DNA of 64,000 bases from Candidatus Poribacteria bacterium (GTDB taxonomy: Bacteria; Poribacteria; WGA-4E; UBA9662): the NCBI GenBank assembly GCA_036339735.1, contig JAYZAL010000088.1:32001-96000 (forward strand), written 5' to 3'. Positions 8,332 to 24,321 of the stretch are shown here, piece after piece. The notes beneath the pieces were generated by a model. The model was not told where the DNA came from and made no database searches. It was given only the letters and a program-made list of their open reading frames with translations. The stretch's first letter is position 1. Each line of letters opens with the position of its first letter. A program made the position numbers and the translations under genes.

Positions 8332-9540
8332 TCATTCATTATTTTTCACTCTTCCCACTATTTGTGATGTAGTGGCAGACAATATTTTATATCGGACTCC
8401 TCCCCAAACAATTTCTTTTCTGAACAAGGTAATTATAACATTAAAGGCGGCGACGATGGATGAAAGAGGAGCGAAAATAGATGATCGATGAATGTTTCTT
8501 TGAACTTCTGATTGTGACCTTAACCATTCAGGCAATATGCGCAGCGATATTCGATAACATTGAATTTCGAAGAATGGGACTAAAAAAACAAGAGATAATG
8601 GGACTGGGTCAAGCCAAAAAATGCTCGGCAAAGCAAAAAGCAAGATCACATTTTTGGGGACAGAGCCTAGAAATGTAGCTAACCAAGCCTTACGGTGCCC
8701 CATCCAAAATGTCATTATCATTTGACGGTTGGTGAACTCCAAGACTTGACTCCATGTACGCATTTCAGGTCGATTGATGGTAATACAATCAGGAACAAAA
8801 TGGATTTTTTGTTCCTGATCTTTGACAGCATGAGTGAGGTTGTGATCCTCAATAGTTGCGTTAGACCAGCGTTGAATAATTTTTCCAGTTTCAATTAACT
8901 TTCGCCGAATTGCGTTAGACCCTCCCCATACCATAGTCGCTGCAGGATTTGCTTGAAGAGGAATCTGGAAATTGACCCAAGCAGCTTCTGTATAGGATGC
9001 TAAACTAGCAGTTTGAGGCAAGTACAGCCTCGCTCCAACCGTTGCGCCAATTTTTTCATCCTGAAGAGGTTCAACCAAGCTTGTCAACCATGTTTCATGA
9101 ACAAACGCATCTGCATCTACAAAAGCAATAATCTCCGTTTCTGCCGGTAATTGATTGATTACTGTAATCAAATTTTGTATTTTTTGGGAGCATGAGAGCT
9201 GGTCATCTACGATATTGGGAGCAATTACGACATCAGCATTTTCAACACTTTCTGTCAATCGTTTTAAGTGGCAGTAAGAAACATCAGCATGTTTCGCTCC
9301 CATTGCATGAGTTACAAAGTGAAGTTGATAATGGCCTTGGTAATCCTGACTAAGCAATTGGAGCACATTCTTTTCTGTTTCCTGATCCCACCCGTAGTGG
9401 GGTGCTATAACGGCCACTCTTGGGTAGTAACTTCCTCGTTTTTGCTGTCGCTCTCTTGTCACATACAAAAACGAACGAAAAACCACGTAACATTCGCATA
9501 ATAGTACCAAATAACAAGTGCCAATTAAGTATAAACTCAT
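8332..9540 (-). CDS. Membrane glycosyltransferase, GT2/GT21 (ceramide glucosyltransferase/HpnI-like)
   Basis: N-terminal TM helix, KIQNL, FVDAD (DXD), WGGS, ED, RQxxxT at the QxxRW position, C-terminal TM helices and IVWGGVRY. Confidence 0.8.
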   Translation of the reverse strand: MSLYLIGTCYLVLLCECYVVFRSFLYVTRERQQKRGSYYPRVAVIAPHYGWDQETEKNVLQLLSQDYQGHYQLHFVTHAMGAKHADVSYCHLKRLTESVENADVVIAPNIVDDQLSCSQKIQNLITVINQLPAETEIIAFVDADAFVHETWLTSLVEPLQDEKIGATVGARLYLPQTASLASYTEAAWVNFQIPLQANPAATMVWGGSNAIRRKLIETGKIIQRWSNATIEDHNLTHAVKDQEQKIHFVPDCITINRPEMRTWSQVLEFTNRQMIMTFWMGHRKAWLATFLGSVPKNVILLFALPSIFWLDPVPLSLVFLVPFFEIQCYRISLRILPEWLRSQSEVQRNIHRSSIFAPLSSIVAAFNVIITLFRKEIVWGGVRYKILSATTSQIVGRVKNNE

Positions 9541-9690
9541 TGATAATTGCTCGTGATTTCACTCCACTTCATGGAAACAAAGAATCTATCATAGACTTCG
9601 ATTCCAGTCAACCTCTTTGTCAGATTTGATGCTTCATTTTTAGATATTCGGAGTCTGCTAAAATGAGACTCATATGTCGCCTTCCAATCC

Positions 9691-9720
9691 TTGACACCCC
9701 TTTATTAGCTGTGATAGAAT
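9691..9720 (+). promoter_or_regulatory. Sigma70-type promoter of the giant-permease operon
   Basis: TTGACA (9691-9696), 18-nt spacer, TAGAAT (9715-9720) preceded by an extended -10 TG. Confidence 0.6.
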
Positions 9721-9869
9721 GCCGAAGTATCGTCTTTTTTATACATATCTTTAACACTTGATTGAGATTTTATGACTATTGTACACATTCAAGTGTCAGG
9801 ATGTACGGCCTCACCGACTTTTTTCATATTCCTTTGCAATTTACAAGGCACAAGGTGGACCTGAGTTTT

Positions 9870-12800
9870 ATGATAAGAATTAGCAGTGATTGGTATTCAC
9901 CGGTTTTACGTAGATCAGTAGTGTTTTTTTACCTGCTTTTGATTGCGAGTTCAGTCCTATGGGCGCAGCAAGATTTATCTTTGAGCCTCTCGGAGGTTGC
10001 TGTCCAGATTCGAGAGCAGGTGAATATTGGAAATATCCGAAAAGATATTGCTAGACTTTCGAGTCTTTCGACACGGGTAACGGGCTACCCACAAGCGGCC
10101 AGTGCCAGTAAGTATGTATTTGACCGGTTTGTCGAAATCGGTTTGGAAGATGTTGAAGGGCGAGATTTCCCTATCACAGTCCCAATTGACAAAGGTAATA
10201 GTCAACTAGAGATAATCGGCAGTAATACGATTTTTAAGCTTTCACCTCTTTGGCCCAACCTTGTTCGAACTTCTCTGATTAGTGATGGTATTAAGCATCG
10301 TGTCACCATGGGTGAAACATTGGATCAGATTGCTGAATCTTATCAGATTGATCGACAAGAAATCATCAGCCATAATACATTTTTGCAAGGAGATGGAAAG
10401 GGGCAAACGCTTGTTGAGGGTAATGAAATTTTTATTCCAACAGGTGGATTAACGGCACCCATTATTGATGGTGGAACTTGTGATCTGAAACAATTTAACG
10501 GTACAGATGTTGGTGGTTTTTGGTATAAAGTCAAACCGACTGATACCATTGAGCTCGTGGCGCGACAGAATGGGGTTGGCGTCGCTAGCATAACAGACGA
10601 CATTCTAAATCGTCATCTGCAAAAAAACGAAGATTCAATAGACAATAATGTGAATGGGGAAGTCGATGAATACGGAGAAATCCCCCTCTTATCCGAAATA
10701 AGTGAGTGGGCGACTGATGGTATTGATAATAACGGCAATGGTTTGATCGACGAAAAAGTGGGGGCCGACAGGAATGGAGTAGATGACGATGGCGACGGTT
10801 TAGTGGACGAAGATGATGAGTTTGTGGCCGCTGATGAATCCCATATTTTTATACCTCGTGGTAGTATCGTTTTAGCAGATTTTAATTCTGGAACGAAATG
10901 GATTAATGGTTCCATGTTAGGCGCAAAGGCGGTCGTTTTTATTGAACCTGACGTAACTATGAGAGGGGAAGCCGAAAATAAGTTCCTCACAGTTCCAGCG
11001 AATATCCCCCGCTTTTGGATTGGTAAATCTGATGGGGAACAGCTGAAAAGATTAATTAGTTCTTCTAATCAAAGTGGAGATGATCTAGAGGTACGACTGA
11101 GCGGAAAAATCAAGTGGGAAAAGAAAGTTGGACAAAACATTCGTGGTTTCTTGTCAGGTTCCGATCCACAACTAAAAGATGAAATGATCGTTATTTCAGC
11201 TTATTACGACTCTATGTCAGTAGTTCCCTCGATGGCCCCCGGGGCTGAGCCAACAAGTGGGATTGCAACGTTAATGGAGTTAGCTAGAATTTTTCGATCT
11301 CAAGCATTTCGGCCTGGGCGTTCAGTTCTGTTCGTTGCCACAGATGCTCATTTTCAAGGCCTGTCGGGAATGCGAGCTTTCATGGATGGTCTCGGTCAAG
11401 ATGTGATCGGTGAAATAGAAGATTCTGCTGGGACACCTACCATGCACGGTCTCCGTCGAGGTATAGATACGGATCTGCATGAGCTAGAAGAATTAGGGCG
11501 TAAAATAGTATTGTCAATTGATCGTAATGTTTTAGTAGATCTCCCCTCTGATTTTTACGGTCATATACATCAAATCAATAGTGATCTGAATTCTCTAGTG
11601 ATTACCCTAGATGGACTCGTTGAAACCCAAAACAAAATTAGTCTGCTAACCAAAGCGCAACGAGATTACAAAGAAAAACGGAAAAAAAAGACTCAATCTA
11701 CCAAAAAGCGAGAAAAACAAGACTTTACAAAAGAGGAAGAGTCTTTACTTAAGGCCAATTCTGCTAAATTTAAGAAAGAAGCAGAGCAGACGGTTCAATT
11801 TCTTCGCGATATTATTTTTCGCTTAGACCGACTACAAGAGGTCGCCATCGATAAATGTCGTATCGCTCAACAAGAATTACTTTCCAATGTAGCTTTGCCC
11901 ATGGCTCACCTTGATTTGTGGGCATTAGATCAATTGACAGAAGATCTACAGACTAAGCGGATTGGAGGGAAATATGGCCAAACACCTGAAAGTTCCTACG
12001 TTAAACCTACAGAGATTAGCAAGGGTAAATTCGTCCTGAACGAACCCGCCAACTTCACTGGAAACCCTGATCATATTGAGACACTCAGTACCTATCTACA
12101 TGACTGGGAATTTGAAGATCCAAGAAAATTCACCCTACAATACAGTCAAGAGAAATTACTTGATCGACATCTGGCTTTCAGAGATTTGCAGAAGATGAAA
12201 TCCGCCCGATCTACTATTCACAGTGGTACAAAGTCTCGTGAAAACTATGTTGAGCAAGAAAAAGAAGTACTGAAACAGGTTGCAAATGAGATCGACAACT
12301 CCAATCAAGCATCTACAGCAGTGGGAAATTTTAAAAGTGTAATCAATCGATTACGGAGTGACCCTTTAGCCGAACCAAAAGTTGACGTCATTGAAAGTTA
12401 CCTAACTGTTGAAAGTAGAAAACGTTTGAGGGACCTCAAAACTGACATTCAGCGGAAACTAGATGAAAAATCTAGCGAAGCAGAAAAAGGGAATTCAACA
12501 GCATCTATAGAAGTCGCAATCACTGATTTAACAAAGGATAAGCAGGCGATCTTGGAAGTCGGAATGAGAAACGCTCGTGTGGAAAAACAGCGGGTAACTG
12601 ATTTGATAGATGGCCATCATCAGCTAGAGCGACTTTACCTGAAGGAAGAAGAATTAGTACTTCGTAATTACTTGGAAGATTCAGAAGTAGAGTCTGCTTT
12701 GGAAGCCCGCCTGCAGATAGGTGCTTACTTGACAGAAAGTCGTTTGCTCTCCTACATCAAAGAGCGAGCAGCGAATGATATTATTGAGTTGAAAGCTTTG

Positions 12801-15800
12801 CAAAATCAGATCAATAATCTTAATTCTGGTTTGCCAGAAGAAACTAAAGATTTGCTTCGAAATAACATGATGACTCTCAGGAATGCGCGCTTTCGTAATA
12901 TTCAAACAAAAGCTGAGCGATTGTTCCGAATTAGTAAAGTGGAGTACAGCCGAAAAATAAAGGCTATCGAACAAGCAATAGCATTACAAGACACATTTAA
13001 TCGTTTTTATACTTCATTATTCATCTCTGTTGACCTATCTAGCCAAAGTAGTAAATTCGGCGTTTTTAACAAAGGTTGGTTTTATGATCAACAGCCAGAA
13101 CATGTTCTTCGCCGTGAGTTTGCATCCATAGGTAACCGATTAACGGAGTATGCTAATCAGGCCGATTTTGGAGAGCGAATTGACAAACTGTGGCAGTTTA
13201 CTGATGACCAGATTCAAAGAGGGATAGCTACTAGTCAGTGGTCGGTAGCCTCAGGAATCAAACCGAAAGAGAAGCTTGAGGGTAAAACACTAGAGTCTTT
13301 GATTTCCAATCACTACGATACTTTGACTGGACTGGGTGGAGTCTCTCGCCTAATGCGAATGCAGTTTGAGCAAATGAAGGCTAGAGGTGAACCATCAGAG
13401 GATATGCTCAAAGACATGGACTATATCCGTAAAGAGGTTGAGCGATTTGTACGAAATGATATTCGGTCAGCCCGAAAAACACGTAAAAATCTAATACGTC
13501 GTACGAACAAGCTGAAAAGTCAACTCGCACTCAGAGGTGAAGATCCTGCTCAACTAACAACAGACGAGATTGATGACATTAAGACCTTGATAGGGATGGT
13601 TGGTTTGGGAGGGGATAGCAATTTTGTTAATGCTATTTCAGCCAGTGGTGGAAAAACTTGGCGGACCCACATTCCGGGTAAAATTGCGTTTGATAGTGAG
13701 GTTGCTACATTAACTGGTAAGACTGGAATCGCTTTTGCAACAGTGGATGATCGGCGGGTTTTGACCGATACGCCTTTAGATACTATTGATCGCATGGATC
13801 TGAAAAAAGATGGAAACCTACACGTTCAAATCAAATCTCTGGCATCTATTTTAGTCCAGGCTTTGCGGGACCCTTCGATGCCAACAGCTGCTCGTGTTGA
13901 CAATTTTTATTGTAGTTTAATCGGTAACGTTGTTGAATTCGATGCTAGAGAAAGCTCTGTCCCTGATAAGCCCGTTCCAGAACCAATTCTGACGATTCGT
14001 CGTAAACATAAGTCAATGATGGGAGTTCGTGGAGACTTATTCATTATGGGCGATAACCGAGGCGCTTATGAAGTTACGGGGTTAGCTATGGAGGGACGGG
14101 CGACTAATAGGATTGGTGGTGCTCAAGAAATCGAGGCTTATGTACTCGATAACGACTCAGGAGACATTACTTATGCGCCTGATTTAGGGAATTACGGAGC
14201 CAAGCTTTTGCCGAATAAAATACCAATTGATCGGCGGAGGCGTGGAGCTCCAATAGTAGTCTTCAAATGTGTGTCGACAACAATCTATGATTTAGTTGAC
14301 CAGCGTTATCTCAGAACTTTAAGAAACTTGGATGTGTATGATGCTGCCACTGATAGCGCGCCGGAAAAATTTGGTGTTTCAAAACCTTGGCAACAAGAAG
14401 GTGTTTCTGCAACTGAGCCGATTGCTCTGGTCTATTCTGAGCCTAATAGTCGTTTGAAGTTAGGAATGTCTTACGGCCAGATTGGCAAACGCTTACTGTT
14501 AATTAAAGCTGGACAAAGTGGAACTAAAAATCCAACCCTTTATACAGGAGAAGGTTTTGTAGTTCGAGAGAATGGTTCAATTCGAACTACGCCTTATGTC
14601 GTCGTTCGAGACATGTGGTGGCTGGACGAAAATCGATCTCGTTTGTATAAGCGTTTCGGTATCAGTAGTGAGCGTTTGGACCAACTTCATCACTACGCTA
14701 ATGAAAATCTTTCTCAAGCCGAAATAGCTCTTAAGAAAGGTGCTTATGACTCCGCTATGCAATTGGCACGTTCGGCTTGGGGGTATGAGTCGCTCGCTTA
14801 TCCAGATGTCAAGAAGACAGGGAACGATGTAGTCAATGGAGTTATGTTTTACTTGGCACTTCTACTTCCTTTTTCTTATTTCATGGAACGGTTAATATTT
14901 GGTTTCCCCAGTGTAAACAAGCAACTGATTGGTACATTCGCTATTTTTGTTGTGTCTTTCGTTTTTCTTGCAATGGTGCATCCAGCCTTCCAAATTACAA
15001 CTACCCCAGTTATTATCTTAATTGCTTTTATTGTTCTGGCTTTATCAGTTATCGTAATTGCTATTATCATCCGCAAATTTGAAGAACAGTTGGAAAAAAT
15101 CAAGCAAGAATCCTCCAAAGTTTATAAAGCTGATGTCGGGCGACTGTCAGCGTCAGCAGCAGCTTTTAGTTTAGGTATTTCTAACATGAGAAAGCGAAGT
15201 GGACGGACAATTTTGACCTCCGCCACTTTGGTCATTTTAACTTTCACTGTGATTTCTTTTACTTCAGTAAAAACGTTTGTCAGACCTAATAGAACAACTT
15301 TAGGGACCGTAACTCCCAAATACAATGGGATGCTGATACGAGATCAATATTGGAGAGCATTAGAAGAACCCGTATATACTTCGATAGCAAATGATTTAAC
15401 TTACAAGAACATTGAAGTATCTGATCTGATATCTAGGAAAGAACAGGAAATTCGACGTCTTAAGGGATTATCTGATCAGGGTAAAAATAAGTCTATACAA
15501 AGCGACTTACAAACTCGAATTAGTAAACTAACTCAACAGATAGGGAAATTGGCAAGCCTATCTGACGTCAATAGTGAGCCAAGTTCTGTCAATGATGAAA
15601 AACAAGAAATCCAAAAATCTCAGACGCAGATAATGGTTCGAAACGTTGTAGCACCGAGGGCTTGGTACCAAACATCAGGAACAGGAGACCAATCTTTTGT
15701 TCAATTGACTCGAATCGAAAATCCAATTGATCCTTTGCCACCTTTGAATTCCGGTAATAAACCCAAGCAGTATCAAGCTAACATGTTGGTTGGTATGAGT

Positions 15801-17288
15801 CATGAAGAGCCAGATATTACTAGTATAGATAGTCATTTAATTTACGGAAAGTGGTTCCTTCCTGAGAACGATAGCGAATGGCCAACTGATTGGCCTAACG
15901 CTTGTGTTTTGCCTAAAGGGATGGCGGATATTCTGGGTATTACCGAATCCGATATGGGAAAAGCTACTGTCCAAGTTGGTGGTGCTAAGTATACGGTCAC
16001 AGGGGTTCTTGGGCTAACTTTTAAAGACTTAAAAGATAATGACGGGGAAGAGCTAACCCCCGTCGACTACCAGCTGATGAATCAGCAGCAATCTCGTGGT
16101 GGACAAGGCGATGAGACATTAGAAGGTGAATTACAGAAGTATATTCATCTTACACCAGACAGTATAGCAATTCTGCCTTACGAAGTAATCATGAATATGG
16201 GCGGTAAACTTCAGTCAGTTGCCGTTAATATGGCCCGTAATGAGTACGATTTGGCCGAGCTAGACCCCATCGAAAAATTAGATCTAATTATGGTACCTTT
16301 GATGAATCGAGTGGCTTTAGACTTGTTCGTTGGCCGAGGGGATGAAGCTTACCTGTATAGTTCAATTGGGATGACTTCATTTTCAGGAATGACCAACTTG
16401 TTTGTTCCTATCTTGATCGCTTCATTAATTGTGTTGAACACTATGTTAGGAGCTGTTTACGAGCGGGTGCGCGAAATAGGTATTTATAGTTCAGTTGGTT
16501 TAGCTCCAGTTCACATTGCGTTCTTGTTCCTAGCTGAAGCATGCGTATACGCTGTTTTAGGAGCAGTAATTGGTTATCTATTTGGTCAAGCTGTGGCAAC
16601 CGTTTTGGTAAAATTCGGTTTGATGGGTGGATTGACTCTTAATTATTCATCAATGTCGACGGTTATTGCAACTATTGTGGTTATGATAGTGGTGATGGCT
16701 AGTACACTTTACCCCGCTATTAAAGCTGGTAGGATGGCTGTTCCAGATATTGAGCGAAAGTGGAAATTACCTGAACCGGATGGGGATTTGTGGCATTTCA
16801 ATCTGCCATTTACTGTTCTGGCTGAGGAAGCATTAGGCTTGAATATCTTCATGAAAGACTATTTTGATGCTCATGCTGATGAGTCGGCTAGTGATTTTTA
16901 TACTGACCAGGTATCTTTCAATCAGGTTGCCAGAGATGATGAAATAGAGTACAGCTGTAGTATGATGGTTTGGTTGGCACCCTATGATCTAGGAGTTAGC
17001 CAATCAATTAGACTAGTGACTTCGCCCGTTGGAGGCGAAGAGGAGGATTTGTACAATATCACCTTAGAGGTTGATAGAGAAAGTGGTGAAATTGCTTCGT
17101 GGAAACGGGTAAATCGCCGGTTCTTGAATTTGATTCGTAAACAACTTTTGATTTGGCGAACTTTTGGCGCTGATGTACGTGGTGAATTTCACGAGCGTGG
17201 AAGACAAGAAGGGATTGAAAATCAATCAATTACTTCAAATTCGGAAGATAGTAGCAGAACAACACTGACGCCGGCGACAGCTACCTAG
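9870..17288 (+). CDS. Giant fusion: signal peptide, PA domain with 2 LysM and acidic repeats, degenerate M28 peptidase fold with helical inserts, MacB/FtsX-type ABC permease
   Basis: Likely start ATG 9870 (AAGGTGG upstream, signal FFYLLLIASSVLWAQ). LysM HRVTMGETLDQIAESY. M28-like IVISAYYDS..GAEPTSGIATLMELAR..RSVLFVAT. MacB TM1 RKRSGRTILTSATLVI. FtsX motif VLNTMLGAVYERVREIGIYSSVGL..FLAEA. Confidence 0.85.
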   Translation: MIRISSDWYSPVLRRSVVFFYLLLIASSVLWAQQDLSLSLSEVAVQIREQVNIGNIRKDIARLSSLSTRVTGYPQAASASKYVFDRFVEIGLEDVEGRDFPITVPIDKGNSQLEIIGSNTIFKLSPLWPNLVRTSLISDGIKHRVTMGETLDQIAESYQIDRQEIISHNTFLQGDGKGQTLVEGNEIFIPTGGLTAPIIDGGTCDLKQFNGTDVGGFWYKVKPTDTIELVARQNGVGVASITDDILNRHLQKNEDSIDNNVNGEVDEYGEIPLLSEISEWATDGIDNNGNGLIDEKVGADRNGVDDDGDGLVDEDDEFVAADESHIFIPRGSIVLADFNSGTKWINGSMLGAKAVVFIEPDVTMRGEAENKFLTVPANIPRFWIGKSDGEQLKRLISSSNQSGDDLEVRLSGKIKWEKKVGQNIRGFLSGSDPQLKDEMIVISAYYDSMSVVPSMAPGAEPTSGIATLMELARIFRSQAFRPGRSVLFVATDAHFQGLSGMRAFMDGLGQDVIGEIEDSAGTPTMHGLRRGIDTDLHELEELGRKIVLSIDRNVLVDLPSDFYGHIHQINSDLNSLVITLDGLVETQNKISLLTKAQRDYKEKRKKKTQSTKKREKQDFTKEEESLLKANSAKFKKEAEQTVQFLRDIIFRLDRLQEVAIDKCRIAQQELLSNVALPMAHLDLWALDQLTEDLQTKRIGGKYGQTPESSYVKPTEISKGKFVLNEPANFTGNPDHIETLSTYLHDWEFEDPRKFTLQYSQEKLLDRHLAFRDLQKMKSARSTIHSGTKSRENYVEQEKEVLKQVANEIDNSNQASTAVGNFKSVINRLRSDPLAEPKVDVIESYLTVESRKRLRDLKTDIQRKLDEKSSEAEKGNSTASIEVAITDLTKDKQAILEVGMRNARVEKQRVTDLIDGHHQLERLYLKEEELVLRNYLEDSEVESALEARLQIGAYLTESRLLSYIKERAANDIIELKALQNQINNLNSGLPEETKDLLRNNMMTLRNARFRNIQTKAERLFRISKVEYSRKIKAIEQAIALQDTFNRFYTSLFISVDLSSQSSKFGVFNKGWFYDQQPEHVLRREFASIGNRLTEYANQADFGERIDKLWQFTDDQIQRGIATSQWSVASGIKPKEKLEGKTLESLISNHYDTLTGLGGVSRLMRMQFEQMKARGEPSEDMLKDMDYIRKEVERFVRNDIRSARKTRKNLIRRTNKLKSQLALRGEDPAQLTTDEIDDIKTLIGMVGLGGDSNFVNAISASGGKTWRTHIPGKIAFDSEVATLTGKTGIAFATVDDRRVLTDTPLDTIDRMDLKKDGNLHVQIKSLASILVQALRDPSMPTAARVDNFYCSLIGNVVEFDARESSVPDKPVPEPILTIRRKHKSMMGVRGDLFIMGDNRGAYEVTGLAMEGRATNRIGGAQEIEAYVLDNDSGDITYAPDLGNYGAKLLPNKIPIDRRRRGAPIVVFKCVSTTIYDLVDQRYLRTLRNLDVYDAATDSAPEKFGVSKPWQQEGVSATEPIALVYSEPNSRLKLGMSYGQIGKRLLLIKAGQSGTKNPTLYTGEGFVVRENGSIRTTPYVVVRDMWWLDENRSRLYKRFGISSERLDQLHHYANENLSQAEIALKKGAYDSAMQLARSAWGYESLAYPDVKKTGNDVVNGVMFYLALLLPFSYFMERLIFGFPSVNKQLIGTFAIFVVSFVFLAMVHPAFQITTTPVIILIAFIVLALSVIVIAIIIRKFEEQLEKIKQESSKVYKADVGRLSASAAAFSLGISNMRKRSGRTILTSATLVILTFTVISFTSVKTFVRPNRTTLGTVTPKYNGMLIRDQYWRALEEPVYTSIANDLTYKNIEVSDLISRKEQEIRRLKGLSDQGKNKSIQSDLQTRISKLTQQIGKLASLSDVNSEPSSVNDEKQEIQKSQTQIMVRNVVAPRAWYQTSGTGDQSFVQLTRIENPIDPLPPLNSGNKPKQYQANMLVGMSHEEPDITSIDSHLIYGKWFLPENDSEWPTDWPNACVLPKGMADILGITESDMGKATVQVGGAKYTVTGVLGLTFKDLKDNDGEELTPVDYQLMNQQQSRGGQGDETLEGELQKYIHLTPDSIAILPYEVIMNMGGKLQSVAVNMARNEYDLAELDPIEKLDLIMVPLMNRVALDLFVGRGDEAYLYSSIGMTSFSGMTNLFVPILIASLIVLNTMLGAVYERVREIGIYSSVGLAPVHIAFLFLAEACVYAVLGAVIGYLFGQAVATVLVKFGLMGGLTLNYSSMSTVIATIVVMIVVMASTLYPAIKAGRMAVPDIERKWKLPEPDGDLWHFNLPFTVLAEEALGLNIFMKDYFDAHADESASDFYTDQVSFNQVARDDEIEYSCSMMVWLAPYDLGVSQSIRLVTSPVGGEEEDLYNITLEVDRESGEIASWKRVNRRFLNLIRKQLLIWRTFGADVRGEFHERGRQEGIENQSITSNSEDSSRTTLTPATAT
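10632..10820 (+). repeat. Three coding acidic repeats DxxDxxGxGxxDE (putative Ca2+-binding)
   Basis: DSIDNNVNGEVDE, DGIDNNGNGLIDE, NGVDDDGDGLVDE. Confidence 0.75.
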
Positions 17289-17339
17289 GTTTGTTTGTGC
17301 TAAGGATCAAATTTTAGAACTAAAAATTGGGTATAGGAA

Positions 17340-17510
17340 ATGGAAAAAGCTGCAAGTCTTGTTATTATTATTGGTGTTTTGTTCTGGGTCGCTTCTATCC
17401 TAGTATTTAAAGGGCTATGGAGATTCCAGATGTTGTCGGCTGGAGTGATTATTTTCGGTATAATCCTAGCCCATACTTGGGAAGAGTTGTTCCGTAATGA
17501 AGATGACTGA
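17340..17510 (+). CDS. Small 56-aa two-TM membrane protein (below the ORF-track cutoff)
   Basis: Translated by hand: MEKAASLVIIIGVLFWVASILVFKGLWRFQMLSAGVIIFGIILAHTWEELFRNEDD*. It fills the gap in the operon, has AGGA just upstream and two hydrophobic helices. Confidence 0.75.
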   Translation: MEKAASLVIIIGVLFWVASILVFKGLWRFQMLSAGVIIFGIILAHTWEELFRNEDD

Positions 17511-17541
17511 CCCAGTTACTATTATCTAATGGAGGAAGAAT

Positions 17542-19533
17542 TTGGCAAGGAAACGGGTAACTCAGGCTGAAGAATGGCAGGCGTGGGCTAAACGATACGA
17601 TATTGACGGTGGCATCCGAAACTTTGAGTCAGGATTAACGCTCAAGGTTTTCTTAGGAGCTTTGTTTGTCGGTCTTCTGATGATGCCGGGTTCGCTTTAC
17701 TTAACCTTTGTTTCTGGTGAGGCGGGAGCTGCTGCGGCATCTTGGGTAGCAGTCATCTTGTTCACCGAGCTATCAAGGCGCTCATTTACCACTGCCACTC
17801 GTCAGGAACTATATATGCTTCTAGGACTGACTGGTGCTGCAGTTGGTTCAGGAACACAGTACCGTAACTTTATTTGGTATGCCTATTTTATTAATACTCC
17901 GCAGGCTGCCTCTTACGAAATTGCAGACAAAATTCCCTGGTGGGTTTGCCCACCTCCCGACTCTATAGCAATTGCTGAGCGTACACTTTTACACATGGAT
18001 TGGTTTTGGCCAATTCTGATCTATATTGTTTTCAAGTTATTAGGTACAGTTCGACATATTAGTGCTGGTTACCTCTTATTTCGTTTAACTGCGGATCTGG
18101 AACGCTTGCCTTACCCAATGGCACCAATTGCGGCGCAAGGTGCAACAGCTTTGGCTGAAACAACAGGTCGGGGTGAAACTTGGAAATGGCGAATTTTCTC
18201 AATTGGCTCCATGGCTGGTTTGATCTGGGGGTTCATTTACATTGGTGTTCCATCCTTAACCGGATTGATGATGTCAGAACCGATTCAAATTCTTAAGATT
18301 CCTTTCATTGACTTTACTCAAGCTATTGAAGGATTTGCTCCTTCGGGGCTCTTCGCACTCCGGACTGATTTCAGTCAAATTATCACCGGATTTGTTATGC
18401 CTTTTCCTGTTGTCATGTCGGAATTTATAACTGCGACATTTAGTCAGCTATTTTTGAATCCGTTTCTGTACAAACAAGGAGTGTTAGTGCAGTGGAAGTC
18501 TGGGATGGATGTACGGCAGGCTGGTTTAGTTAACGGACTAGATTTCTGGATTAGCTATGGGATGGGAAAAAGCTTCAGTATTGCCATAATAGGGTTAGCA
18601 ACCTCGATACCCATGGTTATTAAGCTAAGAGAAAAAAAGCAAGAACAATCAGGACAAAGAGGGACATTAGACCCCCCTCCGGGCCGAGGGGATTTCCCCC
18701 TCTGGCTGATGGCAATTCTTTGGGTTTTTGGTATGGGTATCTACGTTTATATCGTTCACAAATTCATGGTACCGAACTTTCCGTTACAGTTTTTGCTAGG
18801 ATTTGCTTTTCTATACACACCGCTGAATTCTTATGTAACAGCTCGTACGTTTGGTGTATTGGGCAAAGATTTGTTTGATATTCCTTACATTCATGAGATG
18901 ACTTTTATCTTGAGCCGTTATGAAGAAGTGGATATTTGGTTCGTTCATTTGCCAGATGAGGACTATGGCCGTGGGACTCAACACTGGCGTGTTCTTGAGT
19001 TAACAGGTACTACTTTTACTAGTAATATTGCTGGACAGCTTTTGATTATGCCAATCTTAATTGTGGCAGGTATTTTGGTGATGCACTTTATATGGCAGAT
19101 TGCCCCTATCCCATCAGCTCAATACCCTTTTGCTAATATGATGTGGCCAATCAATGCTACAATGGAGTGTATCAATAAAACCGCACTTAGGGATGGAAAT
19201 AGTCAAATGCTTCAAGCTATCCGTGGAGATTATGTCTCTACTGGATTTACTTCTTCTCTGGCAATCTATGGCGTGTTATGGATTGCAAAAATGCCGAGTA
19301 TGTGGTTTTACGGTATTATAGCGGGAATTGGAAATGATCCCGGTATTATCTTACCTCGCCTAATTGGTGCAGTTATAGGTCGTTTCTATATGATTAAACG
19401 GTTTGGTCTGAAACGATGGTTCATGTTCAACCCAGTCTTAGCTGCTGGATTCACTTGTGGAGTGGGTTTAACAGGTATGGCTGTTGTTGCTATATCCCTA
19501 GTGTCTAAAGCAGTTATTGTCAAGCCTTTTTAG
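17542..19533 (+). CDS. OPT-like / DUF6785-related multi-pass peptide transporter
   Basis: GGAGG RBS with TTG start, many TM helices, T..QE motif, ERLPYPMA (resembles the OPT E.L.FP motif), shared motifs with 31023..32975. Confidence 0.7.
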   Translation: MARKRVTQAEEWQAWAKRYDIDGGIRNFESGLTLKVFLGALFVGLLMMPGSLYLTFVSGEAGAAAASWVAVILFTELSRRSFTTATRQELYMLLGLTGAAVGSGTQYRNFIWYAYFINTPQAASYEIADKIPWWVCPPPDSIAIAERTLLHMDWFWPILIYIVFKLLGTVRHISAGYLLFRLTADLERLPYPMAPIAAQGATALAETTGRGETWKWRIFSIGSMAGLIWGFIYIGVPSLTGLMMSEPIQILKIPFIDFTQAIEGFAPSGLFALRTDFSQIITGFVMPFPVVMSEFITATFSQLFLNPFLYKQGVLVQWKSGMDVRQAGLVNGLDFWISYGMGKSFSIAIIGLATSIPMVIKLREKKQEQSGQRGTLDPPPGRGDFPLWLMAILWVFGMGIYVYIVHKFMVPNFPLQFLLGFAFLYTPLNSYVTARTFGVLGKDLFDIPYIHEMTFILSRYEEVDIWFVHLPDEDYGRGTQHWRVLELTGTTFTSNIAGQLLIMPILIVAGILVMHFIWQIAPIPSAQYPFANMMWPINATMECINKTALRDGNSQMLQAIRGDYVSTGFTSSLAIYGVLWIAKMPSMWFYGIIAGIGNDPGIILPRLIGAVIGRFYMIKRFGLKRWFMFNPVLAAGFTCGVGLTGMAVVAISLVSKAVIVKPF

Positions 19534-19588
19534 AGAGAATTTTTCGTATTAAACAAGAATTTAAATAACAAGATTGAAACAGGATTTA

Positions 19589-20329
19589 ATGAGATACTTA
19601 TCTTTATTTTTGGTGATTTTAGTCAACTGCACAGGTTGCCTAACTCAATTGACACAAAACTTGGCACCCAGTGGTGAGTTTGTTAATTACGCTTTAGCCG
19701 AAAATGGTGCAACTGCAGTTGCATCAGGAAGTAGTGGTGACCGAAACGCTAGTACAGTTATCAATGGAATAACCGATTCCAAGGGTTGGGATAAAGGAGA
19801 AGGGTGGGCGATGACTTTCAACCGCGAACATATGCGTTCTGGTATGATGCGCTATGAAAGTCGTATGACTCGAAAAGAACAACGTGGTGGAGCTTGGGTT
19901 GAAGTTAGACTACCGGAGCCCAAGCGAGTCAACCGTATGGTAGTTTATACTGTTGACAGTAATAAATATCCTGCATCCAAATTTGGTATTTACGAAGGTA
20001 ATTTTCAGGTCTGGGACAAGGATAATTGGAAAACAATTGCCAAAGTAAAGAATGGAAAAATCGAATACTTGACAACTACAGCAGGTAGAACGGAAGCCAA
20101 GGGACGGATTTTATTACGATTCCAACCTATTCTCACTAACATGGCGCGTGTAATGGTTTTTCGTAGTAACGATCGTAAGGTCGTTGATAAGACCTACAGT
20201 TCAACTATAGAAGAAAATACTGCTCGGATTGTTGAAATTGAAATAACAGGCTATGAGACCTTTGATCCAAACACCCAAGCGAGTAAAAATCAGGAAGAAG
20301 ATGAACTAGATAGTCTATTGAAACAATAG
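19589..20329 (+). CDS. Probable lipoprotein with discoidin/F5-8C-like (galactose-binding fold) domain
   Basis: AGGA RBS, ATG 19589, hydrophobic leader ending TGC (imperfect lipobox). NYALAENGATAVAS, INGITD, AWVEVRLPEP..V, ARIVEIEITG are typical of the fold. Confidence 0.65.
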   Translation: MRYLSLFLVILVNCTGCLTQLTQNLAPSGEFVNYALAENGATAVASGSSGDRNASTVINGITDSKGWDKGEGWAMTFNREHMRSGMMRYESRMTRKEQRGGAWVEVRLPEPKRVNRMVVYTVDSNKYPASKFGIYEGNFQVWDKDNWKTIAKVKNGKIEYLTTTAGRTEAKGRILLRFQPILTNMARVMVFRSNDRKVVDKTYSSTIEENTARIVEIEITGYETFDPNTQASKNQEEDELDSLLKQ

Positions 20330-20336
20330 ACAAAAC

Positions 20337-21407
20337 ATGATTTTGACAACATTTGGTTGGGCTGGAATTACCCTTTCGGTTCCTGATGATTGGGAAATCG
20401 CAGGCATTAGTGGGGATCAAAAATCTGGTTACTTGCGACTAGATGATGCAGAAATGCCAAGATTGGAACTCAAGTGGTCAGAGAGCAAGAAGCGTCGAGG
20501 AGTCAATCAGGAGGATCTTCATTCCGTCTTGGACGAATATTTCAAGTTAGTACGAAAAAGCTATCGACGGAAGAGAGATAAAAAGACACAATCGAATGAT
20601 CTGAATATAACAAGAGATATAGACCTTCTCAAAAATGATCAGGGAATCGACCTCCATGCCCCTATCTTTTTTCAGTGGAGAGGTGATGTGTTCGCTCATG
20701 GAGTTATATATCATTGTCCTGATAGTAAACGGATTACTATCGCTCAGGTAATGGGCCAGACTCGACAAAGTCTTCGTTCTGTCTCGATCCCGATTTTTCT
20801 CTCTTTAAAGAACTTGCCAAGCGGAGAAATTGGTAGTGAGTTCTTATGGAGTGCCTACCAGATGAGTTTCCGTACACCAGAGCGATATCGGTTAGAAAAG
20901 CACCAACTATTATCCGGTTATTTACTATTCTCCTTTGTTGACCCCGGACCATTTCTTGATCGAAAGCGTCGTTTGAGTGTTGAGCGGTATGGTTTAGCTG
21001 ATGTATTACTGAAAAATTGTGAATTAGAAGATTGGTTCCGAAATCAATACCGAAAATCTCTGCAAGGGTTCGGCTACCAAATAGAAATAGTAGATGATGG
21101 TGTAGACCAGAAATTTACCCTAGTGGGACAAGAAAATCGATTATCTGATAATATTCCTATACAGCCTTTGCAAAATCTGGATCGACTACAGCGTAGAAAA
21201 AGTATAGCGACGCATGTACGCCACTGTCGTCAATCTAATCGAATTTTCGTAGTGCAGTCGGTCTCTAAGCATGAATCCCTTCAAGTAGTTAATGGAGTCG
21301 CAAGTAGTATTGTTTGTCACTCTGATATGGACGACCTTTCTGTAAACACCACACAAAAAGATCATGCTGGATCAAATACTATACAAGCTCAGATTAAAAA
21401 AGCCTGA
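20337..21407 (+). CDS. Hypothetical protein, apparent internal duplication
   Basis: 356-aa ORF tightly packed in the operon, no signal peptide. WAGITLSVPDDWEI resembles WSAYQMSFRTPERYRL. Confidence 0.7.
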   Translation: MILTTFGWAGITLSVPDDWEIAGISGDQKSGYLRLDDAEMPRLELKWSESKKRRGVNQEDLHSVLDEYFKLVRKSYRRKRDKKTQSNDLNITRDIDLLKNDQGIDLHAPIFFQWRGDVFAHGVIYHCPDSKRITIAQVMGQTRQSLRSVSIPIFLSLKNLPSGEIGSEFLWSAYQMSFRTPERYRLEKHQLLSGYLLFSFVDPGPFLDRKRRLSVERYGLADVLLKNCELEDWFRNQYRKSLQGFGYQIEIVDDGVDQKFTLVGQENRLSDNIPIQPLQNLDRLQRRKSIATHVRHCRQSNRIFVVQSVSKHESLQVVNGVASSIVCHSDMDDLSVNTTQKDHAGSNTIQAQIKKA

Positions 21408-21789
21408 TTTGCCAGACCGCAGTGAGCTGATGAAAGCACTTCCGTTGCGGAATCAACTAGTAGAATGGAAATCAGATGATAAGGGTGAAGTCGCTTTAAC
21501 TATCCCACAAAACCATAAAGCATGGCTACGCATTCTGGCTCGTGTATTTAGCCTCCCAGATAAACGAGTAATTGTACTGGATGATGTTGGGTCTTATGTT
21601 TGGCAGCTATGTGATGGGAAGAAATCGTTAAGTCAAATATCCAAGCAAGTTAGCGATAAATATAATTTGACTGTCAAAGAGGCTGAAATGTCTCTCATCG
21701 AATACCTAAGAACGCTAGGAAAACGAGGAATCATCGGTTTCGCTATCCCCAAGAGTATGGAAAAGTCAATTAAGAAAAGGAAAAAATAG
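21364..21789 (+). CDS. PqqD-family / RiPP recognition element protein
   Basis: LDDVGSYVWQLCDGKKSLSQISKQVSDKY...EYLRTLGKRGII matches the PqqD pattern. Confidence 0.8.
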   Translation: MLDQILYKLRLKKPDLPDRSELMKALPLRNQLVEWKSDDKGEVALTIPQNHKAWLRILARVFSLPDKRVIVLDDVGSYVWQLCDGKKSLSQISKQVSDKYNLTVKEAEMSLIEYLRTLGKRGIIGFAIPKSMEKSIKKRKK

Positions 21790-22593
21790 ATGGAAGAAAC
21801 CAGAAATGTTGTTCCAGTAACACAAGACTCTCCAGCTAAATTTCAGCGGGTTCTACCTAAAGAAAATACTGTTCGAGTTCGAAATTTGATTAAGAAATAC
21901 GAAATGGGAGATACCGTAGTCGAAGCACTACGAGGGGTTAATTTCGAAATCAAGCGCGGTGAATATATCTCTATCATGGGAGCTTCAGGATCGGGAAAGT
22001 CAACGTTGTTTAATATGGTCGGTGGGCTCGATAAGCCAACAGAAGGTCGAGTGTATATTGATGAGGTCGATATCGCCCAGTTGGATGCAGCCGAACTGGC
22101 CTGGTTACGTTGTCGAAAAATTGGCTATATTTTTCAATCGTTTAACTTGATTCCGGTCATGACTGCCTTGGAAAATGTTTCTTTACCAATGATTTTTGCC
22201 GGTGAAACTGCGGATGATAGCCGCGATAAAGCTGTAGATCTACTTGATCAAGTTGGCCTCACAGGACGAGTGCACCATAAGCCTTTAGAATTGTCGGGTG
22301 GACAACAACAGCGAGTTGCTATAGCTAGAGCTTTGGCCAACGATCCCACTATCCTCCTAGCAGATGAACCAACTGGCAATCTAGACACTAAAACAGGTTT
22401 AGAAATTATAGATTTAGTCAAACGACTGAATGCTGAGCGGGGTACGACTATCATTACGGCTACTCATGACACAAAGATGTTAGATGTTTCAGACCGGATT
22501 TTTGAGATGGAAGATGGTCGGGTCATGAAAATTGAAACTCGAGATGAAATTGATCTACAGGTCGGAAAACTAGATGGGGAAGAAGTCGGGTAG
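21790..22593 (+). CDS. ABC ATPase, LolD/MacB subfamily
   Basis: GASGSGKST, IGYIFQSFNL, LSGGQQQRVAIARAL, LADEPTGNLD, THD. Confidence 0.95.
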   Translation: MEETRNVVPVTQDSPAKFQRVLPKENTVRVRNLIKKYEMGDTVVEALRGVNFEIKRGEYISIMGASGSGKSTLFNMVGGLDKPTEGRVYIDEVDIAQLDAAELAWLRCRKIGYIFQSFNLIPVMTALENVSLPMIFAGETADDSRDKAVDLLDQVGLTGRVHHKPLELSGGQQQRVAIARALANDPTILLADEPTGNLDTKTGLEIIDLVKRLNAERGTTIITATHDTKMLDVSDRIFEMEDGRVMKIETRDEIDLQVGKLDGEEVG

Positions 22594-22638
22594 AAACTGG
22601 TTCAGATTTTCATATATAACTCGTCGATCTGTTTTACT

Positions 22639-24321
22639 TCAGATCTTCTGACCTTCGATCAAGGTATATACCTGATTTGCTGACAAATTTTTGTGATGGT
22701 CAGTTTGCCCACTTGGCCATTGGATTTCCACGTGCTTAATTACTGTATCTGTCCCTAGTCCAAAATGTACTCGTAGGTCGCTGGCGGATAGATAGCTACC
22801 ATCGGATCGTACTTCCCGATACTGTGTTAAGTTCTCAGTAGTAACCATAATTTTGGAACCAATTCCTGACTTGTTACTTTTGACACCTATTGTCTTGAAC
22901 ATCACCCAATGGTTTCGGTTACCAACTTCGTTCCTTAATAGATCCGGAGACTGGTTCCAATTCGTTACGATAATATCAATATCACCGTCGTTATCGTAAT
23001 CACCAAAAGCCGCTGATCTACTAACCTTCTTTATATTCAGACCACCTGTTCCATTCACTAGTTCAAAAGTACCGTTGTGCTGATTTCGAAATAAGAGGTT
23101 TTTTTGAGGGAAAGTAACGTTAGGTTCTAATTGATTAATGTTATCCATCACATGACCGTTCACTACAAACACATCCTGCCACCCATCATTATCATAATCA
23201 AAAAATTTGATTCCCCAACCTAAATAATTATAAGTTTGCTCAGCCATTCCTGTAGTAATAGTTAAATCCATAAAGAAATCGTTACCTTCATTATGGTAAA
23301 TAGTATTGGTCTCAGTCTGAAAGTTACTGACTGTTAAGTCGAGGTAACCGTCATTGTCATAATCTCCAAAAGCAGTTCCCATTCCAGCTTCTTCCTTCCC
23401 CATACCATTATAAGCCACTCCTGCAAGTAATGCGATTTCGTCAAAGTTTCCATCACCTCGATTCTGAAATAAAAAATTTGGGTCTTGATCATTTGCCAGA
23501 TAGAAATCAGAGTCGCCATCATTATCGTAGTCTCCCACTACCACTCCTAACCCATGACAAGGTAGTGGCTGATTAATTCCTCTTTGTTCAGCCTGGTCAA
23601 TAAAGGTACCATCGCCGTTATTGACGAATAACCTATCAGGAGTTGGTGAATAGGCATGTGGTCCACAATAAACATGGATCTGGCGAATAATACATTGATA
23701 GTCAAGAGTTACATCATAGTTAGCGTAGTTGGTAACATAGAGATCAAGATGACCATCATTGTTAATGTCGGTCAATGCACAACTAGTTCCCCAACTTAGG
23801 TTATTGATTTCAGCCGATTGTGTTACATTTTTAAAACTTCCATCCCCTTGGTTTCGATACAAGACATCAGCACCAAAGTTCGTCAAATACAAATCGATAA
23901 AACCATCGTTGTCATAGTCACCGGTTGTACAACCTACACCGTATCCAGCATGACCTAAATTAGTGTCTGATGTGACATTAACAAATGACCCATCTCCCTG
24001 GTTTTGGTACATTTGGTTCGGCGCAGTCATATCAGATGAGGGTAATTGCTTAGCTCCATTCAACAGATAAATATCTAAATCACCATCATTATCATAGTCA
24101 AAAAGAGCAACTCCGGATCCAAGAAATTCATTAAACAATCGTTTTCGGCTGTGACCATCCGAGTGTACAAAATTGATTCGAGCAGTTTCGGTTACTGAAC
24201 GAAAAATTACCTCGGCAGGGATTGTAATAATGCCAGTAAAAAACGAAACCAAACACAAATAGGTATAAGACCTGATTTGCCTATTTAGTCTTGTTCTTTT
24301 GAGCTTGTAAAATTTCATCAA
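22639..24321 (-). CDS. CRTAC1-family protein (FG-GAP repeats plus ASPIC/UnbV)
   Basis: Repeated DYDNDGDLD, C-terminal SYLSASDLRVHFGLG..IQWPSG. Confidence 0.9.
   Translation of the reverse strand: MMKFYKLKRTRLNRQIRSYTYLCLVSFFTGIITIPAEVIFRSVTETARINFVHSDGHSRKRLFNEFLGSGVALFDYDNDGDLDIYLLNGAKQLPSSDMTAPNQMYQNQGDGSFVNVTSDTNLGHAGYGVGCTTGDYDNDGFIDLYLTNFGADVLYRNQGDGSFKNVTQSAEINNLSWGTSCALTDINNDGHLDLYVTNYANYDVTLDYQCIIRQIHVYCGPHAYSPTPDRLFVNNGDGTFIDQAEQRGINQPLPCHGLGVVVGDYDNDGDSDFYLANDQDPNFLFQNRGDGNFDEIALLAGVAYNGMGKEEAGMGTAFGDYDNDGYLDLTVSNFQTETNTIYHNEGNDFFMDLTITTGMAEQTYNYLGWGIKFFDYDNDGWQDVFVVNGHVMDNINQLEPNVTFPQKNLLFRNQHNGTFELVNGTGGLNIKKVSRSAAFGDYDNDGDIDIIVTNWNQSPDLLRNEVGNRNHWVMFKTIGVKSNKSGIGSKIMVTTENLTQYREVRSDGSYLSASDLRVHFGLGTDTVIKHVEIQWPSGQTDHHKNLSANQVYTLIEGQKI

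Follow-up and report, generated by a model that had tools for sequence, protein, structure and literature searches.

A conserved operon of Candidatus Poribacteria that may encode most of an envelope system combining a type VII ABC motor with an OPT-fold permease

Genes and proteins of the operon

The subject of this study is an operon in the genome of a Candidatus Poribacteria bacterium (assembly GCA_036339735.1; 4.3 Mb, 92% complete). The window analysed is a stretch of 64,000 nucleotides (nt) that forms part of contig C88 (JAYZAL010000088.1, positions 32,001 to 96,000), and all positions given below are counted from its first letter. At 9870-22593 it carries seven co-directional, tightly packed open reading frames (ORFs) on the plus strand, which are separated by successive gaps of 51, 31, 40 and 7 nt, followed by an overlap of 44 nt and a gap of 0 nt. 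These genes would encode most of one conserved envelope system, with a sixth core part on another contig, and the products very probably work as one functional system built on a type VII ABC motor (ABC, ATP-binding cassette). An original prediction had described seven tight or overlapping plus-strand genes between minus-strand genes, coding for a giant pseudo-peptidase/FtsX protein, an OPT-like permease, a PqqD protein and an ABC ATPase among others; the layout is borne out by the ORF coordinates, spacers and flanks, and the parts list agrees with our annotation (aa, amino acids; RRE, RiPP recognition element, where RiPPs are peptides made on the ribosome and modified after translation):

9870-17288, plus strand: G1, 2472 aa from its ATG, giant pseudo-peptidase/FtsX protein
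17340-17510, plus strand: ORF of 56 aa with two hydrophobic helices
17542-19533, plus strand: G2, 663 aa, predicted OPT-fold polytopic permease
19574-20329, plus strand: G3, 251 aa, secreted or lipoprotein-like
20337-21407, plus strand: G4, 356 aa, cytoplasmic, tandem PsbP/Mog1/DcrB-like
21364-21789, plus strand: G5, 141 aa, PqqD/RRE-like, overlapping G4 by 44 nt
21790-22593, plus strand: G6, 267 aa, LolD/MacB/FtsE-type ABC ATPase

Relatives of G2 were collected by scanning one genome per species. At least 594 were found, of which the best 79 loci were taken with 10-kb flanks, 49 from Poribacteria and 30 from other groups; they are cited below by our own numbers (L002 and so on). Among the matches listed, the public loci nearest to the window belong to Poribacteria metagenome-assembled genomes (MAGs).

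In G1, a signal peptide or anchor is followed by an inactive M28/PA ectodomain, three transmembrane (TM) helices, a four-TM MacB/FtsX-type module and a cytoplasmic C-terminal domain. The TM layout was read from hydropathy alone, which also assigns about 1620 residues to the ectodomain behind the signal-like N-terminal segment. Pfam profiles matched LysM at residues 143-190 (29 bits), Peptidase_M28 (PF04389) at residues 423-505 (34.6 bits, covering the first 77 of 193 profile positions only) and FtsX (PF02687) at residues 2178-2289 (48.2 bits, cut-off 25.5); the Pfam MacB_PCD profile had no match in G1, and a Pfam scan of the C-terminal domain returned no family. The parts of the gene are the following:

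10290-10856, plus strand: LysM-bearing insertion in the PA-domain region (residues 141-329), with LysM and acidic DxDxDG-like repeats (weak repeat match)
11136-11384, plus strand: first half of the M28-like domain (residues 423-505), in which the residues for zinc and catalysis are substituted
11388-13304, plus strand: helical insertion splitting the M28-like domain (residues 507-1145, about 640 aa), charged and poor in Pro and Gly, found in Poribacteria only
13305-14828, plus strand: second half of the M28-like domain and beta-rich periplasmic region, with a motif at residue 1273
14829-15086, plus strand: three extra TM helices (residues 1654-1739) before the FtsX module, placed by hydropathy
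15204-16736, plus strand: MacB/FtsX-type module, with TM1 at residues 1779-1804, a periplasmic loop of about 365 aa and TM2-4 at residues 2170-2287
16737-17288, plus strand: cytoplasmic C-terminal domain (residues 2290-2472, about 180 aa)

Aligned with a 1529-aa orthologue from Armatimonadota, G1 of the window has three insertions (residues 141-329, 507-1145 and 1844-1926), and its C-terminal domain remains alignable up to residue 2440. The first insertion has no counterpart in that orthologue, and LysM was absent from all six non-Poribacteria G1 proteins scanned, so that the term 'wall-anchored', which had been proposed for the machine, does not describe a general trait. For the second insertion, a BLAST map found no counterpart in the G1 protein of L055; its content of Pro plus Gly is 6.2 per 100 residues, compared to 12.1 elsewhere. 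A query made from this part of G1 matched 46 of the 49 Poribacteria loci, the remaining three being cut by a contig end, and outside Poribacteria it gave a weak match in L076 only. The best-conserved part of G1 is encoded at 13305-14828. Its identity is 72-80% in those Poribacteria loci in which G2 shares at least 68% of its residues with the G2 of the window, and 62-67% in loci that have diverged further; its beta-rich periplasmic region is of unassigned fold, and ESM Atlas gave no usable hit.

A profile built from the N-terminal 620-720 residues of nine shorter G1 orthologues matched the active M28 aminopeptidases 2ek8 (E 6e-23) and YwaD 6hc6 (2.8e-17), both equipped with a PA domain, as well as the inactive relatives nicalin (4.8e-8) and the transferrin receptor (about 1e-6); at the level of fold, the match to M28 plus PA is strong. 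The residues of an active M28 enzyme, i.e. the zinc ligands His, Asp, Glu, Asp and His together with a catalytic Glu, are not retained in G1. With reference to the Aeromonas aminopeptidase, His97 is replaced by Tyr, Glu151 by His and Glu152 by Phe; in the profile of the G1 family, SHHDS has become SYYDS, the bridging Asp an invariant Glu, the Glu-Glu pair His-Phe, and 'YHTPnD' has become 'vdTPfD', in which Asp takes the place of the last His. As far as the canonical site is concerned, these substitutions justify the label 'pseudo-peptidase', and since the zinc and catalytic residues are replaced, the ectodomain is most likely a ligand-binding head like those of the transferrin receptor and nicalin and not a peptidase. 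The two latter proteins have not kept the M28 catalytic set either. In comparison with them and with 2ek8 and YwaD 6hc6, G1 differs in being fused to an ABC permease and, in its Poribacteria form, in carrying a LysM and in being split by the helical insertion. The membrane module has the predicted topology of four TM helices with both termini inside and a large extracytoplasmic domain between TM1 and TM2 (hydropathy only). The FtsX part aligns to MacB 5gko (E 7.3e-6) and to YtrF and LolC chains; the PDB chains 5lil, 7arh and 9o9x were matched as well.

G2 has no Pfam or NCBIfam match, and the OPT profile PF03169 is absent even at E<=10, so that the predicted OPT-like nature of this protein stood by fold and by relatives and failed by Pfam. 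In a Foldseek search of the PDB with its AlphaFold model (pLDDT, the predicted local distance difference test, 76.8), the only solved structures retrieved were those of barley Yellow Stripe 1 (HvYS1), 7wst and 7wsr (E 1.3e-10 and 9e-10, TM-score 0.54-0.64), one of which is in complex with Fe(III)-deoxymugineic acid (Fe(III)-DMA); the next hit had E 5e-3 and a TM-score of 0.11. Sequence identity is 14%. G2 has more than 1000 homologues, a few of which are named 'peptide transporter' or have a precomputed PF03169 match: the profile is precomputed on 3 of the best 120 homologues, reaches E<=0.01 on 2 of 16 aligned relatives, and scores 24.3 bits on the L055 orthologue, just under the cut-off of 25.8. 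The G2 family profile retrieved nothing from the PDB sequences at E<=1. Judged by its model, G2 is thus an OPT-fold protein and not a member of the OPT family by the Pfam threshold. The alignment contains many invariant charged residues (E76, R80, E89, R181, D185, E187, E206, R382, D384, R435, D464 and R483, among others), and we therefore read G2 as a working carrier rather than a scaffold. Tandem copies of G2 occur in some Poribacteria; at L008:7268-13512, two paralogues (74% and 77% identical to G2 of the window) enclose a DUF805 gene, and in the same locus a '23S rRNA intervening-sequence protein' gene lies between the G4 and PqqD genes.

G4 belongs to no sequence family by Pfam (to E<=10), and ESM Atlas returned unnamed clusters only; its 522 representative relatives at E<=1e-3 are all stand-alone proteins of about 300-340 aa. 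The model (pLDDT 89.3) consists of two PsbP/Mog1/DcrB-like domains in tandem, each an alpha-beta-alpha sandwich. Residues 1-160 match CyanoP 2xb3 (Z 13.7, root mean square deviation 2.9, 141 residues aligned) and residues 165-332 match Mog1 1jhs (Z 11.9), followed by TplEi 5h7y (Z 10.2), DcrB (Z 9.3), the Eag-type chaperone SciW (Z 8.9) and PsbP chains (E 1.6e-4). According to the model, this is an interaction fold and not an enzyme fold. Cys127, Cys297, Cys327 and His328 are near-invariant, which suggests a zinc site. In L002, whose G2 is 96% identical to that of the window, the G4 orthologue (L002:12795-13844) has an in-frame stop at codon 157, due to either a pseudogene or an assembly error of the MAG.

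G5 matches PqqD (PF05402) with 45.5 bits at a cut-off of 23.4, lies below the cut-offs of all NCBIfam PqqD-type models, and follows immediately after G4 in every case, both in Poribacteria and in other phyla. It shares with the PqqD/RRE proteins of RiPP pathways that it passes the Pfam PqqD threshold and differs from them in its fixed partners, G4 and the ABC module; neither a precursor nor a maturase gene is conserved near the cluster. A complex prediction for G4 and PqqD gave a score of 0.00 in a run without controls, which speaks neither for nor against their interaction. In G6, ABC_tran matched with E 7.8e-36, and the Walker A, signature, Walker B and switch-His motifs are intact. The top NCBIfam match is LolD (240.8 bits, cut-off 307.75; E 1.2e-71), then YbbA, then MacB (E 1.1e-66), with FtsE at E 3.2e-63; since all stay under the equivalog cut-offs, G6 is assigned at subfamily level only. 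An apparent PqqD-ATPase fusion in L003 and L005 was ruled out, an in-frame stop separating the two genes.

The two remaining products are accessories with a narrow distribution. In 44 of the 49 Poribacteria loci, and in 0 of the 30 others, an ORF of 56 aa lies just 5' of G2 or a tandem copy of it; we count it as a real gene on account of this conservation, coding for a Poribacteria-specific accessory. G3, which has a weak discoidin-like match (F5_F8_type_C_2, 23.4 bits, below the cut-off of 27.8), recurs among the 79 loci in L002 only and is a lineage-specific accessory.

Conservation, copy numbers and a sixth core part

The original prediction staked the idea of a system on co-occurrence of the genes in other genomes, and this was strongly confirmed. 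In Poribacteria, G1 lies upstream of G2 in 48 of 49 loci, the exception (L018) being a locus whose contig stops immediately ahead of G2; further downstream, G4 and PqqD were found in 48 of 49 loci and the ATPase in 47, with contig ends accounting for the misses. G1 was present in all 61 Poribacteria genomes searched. Among the 30 loci from elsewhere, a G1 of 1500-1730 aa with M28 and FtsX parts is located directly 5' of G2 in 21, one is uninformative, and eight have G2 alone. The 21 come from Armatimonadota, Abditibacteria, Planctomycetota/Brocadiia, WS1, Zipacnadia, Nitrospiraceae and others, so that the G1-G2 adjacency extends across at least seven phylum-level labels. Similar neighbourhoods had been anticipated in PVC-like bacteria and some archaea: the former turned up in Planctomycetota/Brocadiia (G1 directly 5' of G2 in L058, L059, L063, L068 and L078), and no archaeal locus appeared among the best 80 of the at least 594 relatives.

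Outside Poribacteria, the cassette includes a further gene. In L055, L072, L074 and L076, G1 and G2 are followed by G4, PqqD, a small FtsX of about 210-280 aa and the ATPase, and in L062, L071, L073 and L075 the small FtsX and the ATPase lie upstream of G1. The source genome of the window carries such a protein on contig C2 (L081:8365-9015), a 216-aa FtsX without the large loop that is 43% identical to the cassette small FtsX of L076. It stands beside a second ATPase with 63% identity to G6, from which we conclude that Poribacteria keep two paralogous ATPases of the G6 subfamily; the pair (L081:8365-9785) sits between phosphofructokinase and ATP-sulfurylase genes, far from the operon. Across the 61 Poribacteria genomes, the small FtsX was found in 60, single-copy and unlinked to the operon. 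It is the sixth core part of the system, beside G1, G2, G4, PqqD and the ATPase. Two unusual ORFs were observed in passing. At L072:13367-14503, PqqD and the small FtsX form one ORF of 378 aa without a stop between them, the sole such case observed. When it was used as a query, the best 120 homologues were exclusively small FtsX proteins standing alone, 208-226 aa long except for one of 501 aa, and they included a 211-aa protein identical to its C-terminal half. At G000:C47:31788-33464 in the source genome, an open frame of 1093 aa with two FtsX domains would represent a duplicated permease of another type.

Presence and absence were scored in one set of 101 Armatimonadota genomes. G1 occurs in 81 of them and G2 in the identical 81; G4 accompanies G1 in 80 and the small FtsX in 79 of these carriers. 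Twenty genomes are without all four parts, and none has G4 or the small FtsX while lacking G1. This co-occurrence holds also where the genes sit on separate contigs.

The copy numbers suggest a modular layout. Five genomes with a G2 lacking an adjacent G1 have one G4 each, which in four of them sits in a G4-PqqD-small FtsX(-ATPase) string, and 1-4 full-length G1 paralogues elsewhere. The neighbours of nine G1 paralogues were inspected in three such genomes, and seven of the nine stand beside OPT-type genes (DUF6785/6784 and/or G2); the arrangement is a DUF6785-G1-G2 triplet in some cases and a DUF6785/6784 gene in divergent orientation in others. The second phylum to which these three genomes, as well as L053, L060 and L066, belong was sampled with 33 genomes: G4 is a single match in 32, G1 is found in all 33, usually with three matches, and G4, PqqD, small FtsX and ATPase make up an operon of their own. 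The five complete chromosomes among them each have one G6 orthologue (70-71% identity, the next ATPase being at 46-48%) and three G2 paralogues. From one G4/G6 set as against about three G1 and three G2 genes, we infer that several G1/permease pairs share a single module of motor and accessory proteins. In this respect the system resembles the group II energy-coupling factor (ECF) transporters and TonB-ExbBD, with one motor module per genome and several specificity modules; it differs from them in its protein families, which are unrelated to theirs, and the sharing would follow here from copy numbers only. Several paralogues per shared motor are typical of uptake systems such as ECF and TonB.

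That the operon represents no single system, i.e. that an ABC transporter made of G1 and G6 and an independent secondary transporter, G2, are chance neighbours, is highly improbable and was already disfavoured. The eight informative loci in which G2 lies apart from any G1, and the failure to find a fusion, would agree with it. It is contradicted by the adjacency across phyla, by the presence/absence patterns, which are identical in 101 of 101 Armatimonadota genomes, and by the matching copy numbers of three and three in the second phylum. The same data bear on the idea of a sensor in the manner of BceAB, in which binding of a ligand to the ectodomain would be signalled to the cytoplasm by the ABC module, with G4 and PqqD as a relay and G2 as a separate permease under the same control. 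BceB has two unequal halves, which the pairing of a large-loop FtsX module in G1 with a loop-less small FtsX would resemble; the PsbP/Mog1/Eag-like fold predicted for G4 is of a type suited to protein interaction, and PqqD has a peptide-binding fold. Nevertheless, genes for a kinase, a response regulator or a sigma/anti-sigma factor are not conserved next to the cluster, and the agreement of G1 and G2 in all 101 genomes argues for joint action, not mere co-regulation. We regard a sensor as improbable.

Surroundings and transcription of the operon

Upstream of G1, a Shine-Dalgarno-like sequence, AAGGTGGA, lies 10 nt 5' of the ATG, and the near-consensus promoter that had been noted was recovered as a match in 11 of 12 positions, the top-scoring site of the region 9400-23000. 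Sigma-70-like sites number 34 in this region compared to 30.1 +/- 5.5 in shuffled sequence, i.e. there is no excess; the site is therefore a consensus match and no proof of function, albeit a plausible promoter of the operon. In the terminator scan, counts were not above those of shuffles, and no terminator-like site was found 3' of G6 on the plus strand. The site and the surrounding genes are:

9691-9720, plus strand: match to a sigma-70-like promoter, TTGACA-18-TAGAAT, the -10 element being preceded by TG
7007-8227, minus strand: radical-SAM/SPASM gene, divergent, beyond the glycosyltransferase gene
8332-9540, minus strand: GT2 (family 2) glycosyltransferase gene, divergent, upstream flank
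22639-24321, minus strand: FG-GAP/ASPIC (UnbV) gene, downstream flank
31023-32975, minus strand: DUF6785/DUF6784 membrane protein gene, 8 kb from the operon in a separate gene string

Directly downstream of the operon, the FG-GAP/ASPIC (UnbV) gene and a gene for a long tetratricopeptide repeat (TPR) protein occupy 22639-25861 on the minus strand. Among the 79 loci, the FG-GAP protein was matched in L002 alone, and the TPR query gave 68% identity in L002 and weak matches of 21-24% in four more. DUF6785/6784 genes stand directly beside G1 paralogues in other phyla (L079, L059, L069, L098-L106), often in DUF6785-G1-G2 triplets, so that their products resemble G2 in adjoining G1; in the source genome, by contrast, the gene lies outside the operon. 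Homology of G2 to the DUF6785/6784 protein of the window was not established, either by BLAST (E 0.25) or by a profile-profile comparison (E 0.041, probability 1.3%), in which the alignment is co-linear over 503 columns. Wall-related genes were seen near the cassette in three loci of different phyla, which may be chance: FtsW/RodA at L062:14102-15256, a SPOR-domain gene at L076:14975-15724 and YceG/MltG at L079:11211-12317.

The operon stretch is present in six RNA-library runs. In four metatranscriptome runs, each from a different study, contigs that possibly include DNA cover the operon in 26-30 of 30 bins, and RNA-library contigs span all of its gene junctions:

16599-18094: RNA contig over the G1/56-aa ORF/G2 junctions, run X16 record 13
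18685-20088: RNA contig over the G2/G3 junction, run X16 record 14
20219-20943: RNA contig over the G3/G4 junction, run X17 record 23
21201-21466: RNA contig over the G4/G5 junction, run X19 record 32
21607-22283: RNA contig over the G5/G6 junction, run X16 record 16

With a radical-SAM/SPASM gene divergently upstream, the locus could be read as a RiPP cluster of radical SAM/SPASM, PqqD and ABC genes. This reading was ruled out because the radical-SAM and GT2 gene pair is common only to the window and its nearest relative, L002, among the 79 loci. A broader form of the idea is an exporter or extractor like MacB, LolCDE or YbbAP, in which the motor expels a peptide or lipid-linked product from the inner membrane or periplasm, PqqD binds a ribosomal peptide precursor and G2 is the export path or a flippase. 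It would accord with the outward action of the type VII ABC systems characterised in the abstracts consulted, with the association of PqqD/RRE proteins with peptide-maturation pathways, as indicated by NCBIfam names, and with the radical-SAM/SPASM gene itself. The narrow distribution of that gene pair argues against it here too, as does the lack of any conserved gene for a precursor, a maturase, a periplasmic adaptor or an outer-membrane duct alongside the cluster. Moreover, the solved structures that match the G2 model are those of barley Yellow Stripe 1 only, an importer, and a layout of several paralogues on a shared motor is typical of uptake. Export is thus, in our assessment, distinctly unlikely.

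Proposed mechanism and significance

The explanation we favour is that the C-terminal four-TM FtsX module of G1 is driven by G6 in the manner of a type VII mechanotransducer, and that this module probably pairs with the loop-less small FtsX to give an asymmetric permease dimer. ATP-driven motion of the periplasmic parts of G1 would capture a peptide-like ligand by means of the M28/PA-fold head, with no pore being opened, and G1 would present the ligand to the OPT-fold G2, which would move it through the inner membrane, most likely into the cell. G4, possibly a zinc-binding protein, and the PqqD/RRE-like G5 would be cytoplasmic accessories of the motor module. The chain of events in the original prediction, with capture by the ectodomain, ABC-driven hand-off, an OPT-like conduit and an RRE chaperone in the cytoplasm, is likewise conjectural. 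A dead M28/PA head, an obligate OPT-fold partner, the lack of an adaptor or duct gene and several receptor/permease pairs per motor together point to peptide-like capture and import via G2. We propose a capture-and-import device tentatively, and the favoured explanation as a whole, with mechanotransducer motor, binding head and OPT-fold import path, somewhat short of even confidence.

The abstracts on type VII ABC systems name MacAB-TolC, LolCDE, FtsEX-EnvC and YbbAP-TesA, and the characterised systems described there export or extract substrates or regulate hydrolases. Like them, G1 has a four-TM module of the FtsX family whose TM1 and TM2 are joined by a large loop, the operon has a LolD/MacB/FtsE-type ATPase, and, by analogy, ATP hydrolysis would be expected to set periplasmic domains in motion while the permease itself passes no substrate. 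Unlike in these systems, G1 carries its permease C-terminal to an ectodomain of 1600 aa and three additional helices, a loop-less FtsX of about 210 aa would serve as the other permease subunit, and the conserved partners comprise an OPT-fold permease, PqqD and a tandem PsbP-like protein, none of which occurs in a type VII system described so far. The operon is accompanied by no TolC-like duct or adaptor, LolA-like carrier, EnvC-like partner or amidase; a MacA/HlyD-type adaptor and an outer-membrane duct were absent from the operon, its flanks and the related loci examined, the rest of the genome not having been surveyed. With respect to G2, the known members of the OPT family work alone as secondary carriers without an ABC motor, and HvYS1 and the characterised OPT family are importers.

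In place of import of nutrients, the system might remodel or recycle the cell wall in an FtsEX-like manner. The motor would then drive the G1 head, possibly still active through an altered metal site, on peptidoglycan stem peptides, G2 would re-import the peptides set free, and G4 and PqqD would link the motor to growth or division factors. Among the type VII ABC systems that regulate wall hydrolases, those of the FtsEX type are, according to the abstracts, the best known, and G1 of Poribacteria has acquired a LysM; against this, the LysM is an insertion of Poribacteria only. The FtsW/RodA, SPOR and YceG/MltG neighbours of L062, L076 and L079 would fit a role in the wall, but such neighbours vary by locus, and none was seen in the other seven loci scanned. 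That the system occurs in every genome searched from two phyla (61 of 61 and 33 of 33) is as expected of a housekeeping function, yet the whole system is missing from 20 of the 101 Armatimonadota genomes. The invariance of the substituted M28 positions also speaks for remodelling; on the other hand, the cluster has no conserved gene for an amidase, an EnvC/PcsB-like activator or a division protein, and three G1 paralogues with OPT-type genes of their own look more like specificity variants. On balance we consider wall remodelling unlikely.

Several points weigh against the capture-and-import explanation. We infer the physical contacts between the parts, as well as the heterodimer with the small FtsX, the ligand class, the direction of transport and the roles of G4 and G5. 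To our knowledge, no type VII ABC system feeds an importer, so that the proposed direction runs against precedent. The residues that replace the M28 site are themselves invariant (E280, H312 and E446 in alignment A5), and a different metal site or catalytic activity in the G1 head is thus possible. The presence of G1 in all genomes searched from Poribacteria and the second phylum is equally compatible with a housekeeping role in the envelope and with nutrient uptake. Furthermore, genomes within a phylum are related, and co-occurrence counts therefore overstate independent support; G2 is not beside G1 in eight informative loci, and no OPT-type gene lies within about 8 kb of the G1 paralogues L103 and L105, from which it follows that G1-G2 adjacency is frequent, not obligatory. 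No fused or longer forms of G2 were found at E<=1e-10, which is weak evidence, and the RNA-library contigs are no proof of a single transcript.

In the portions of the literature covered by our search, no account was found of a combination of an FtsX giant, an OPT-like permease, PqqD and ABC, in keeping with the original view that the operon matches no characterised system. The small FtsX as a core part, and the ratio of about three giant and three permease paralogues per single PsbP-like/PqqD/small-FtsX/ATPase module in one phylum, appear to be new; the four-way presence/absence pattern and the fold of G4 are further additions of this analysis. At its most far-reaching, the interpretation would be that of a hybrid machine, in which a type VII ABC motor moves no substrate itself and loads or gates OPT-type permeases, with one motor and cytoplasmic module for several giant-receptor/permease pairs, as an inner-membrane counterpart of TonB-dependent or ECF-type uptake. 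This we put forward as doubtful; if true, it would be a hybrid transport machine of a kind so far undescribed.

A further widespread member of the type VII ABC systems with a different set of partners would broaden the known uses of this motor. Bacterial OPT-fold proteins are, as far as we know, almost uncharacterised, and a fixed link of one of them to an ATP motor offers a concrete handle on function, while the copy-number pattern suggests a modular design of one motor and several receptor/permease pairs. Sequences of the operon type were also detected in RNA libraries of marine metatranscriptomes. Considering this together with the presence of the system in all genomes sampled from Poribacteria and the second phylum and in four fifths of the Armatimonadota, it is probably important for the envelope or the nutrition of several poorly known, mostly uncultured phyla.

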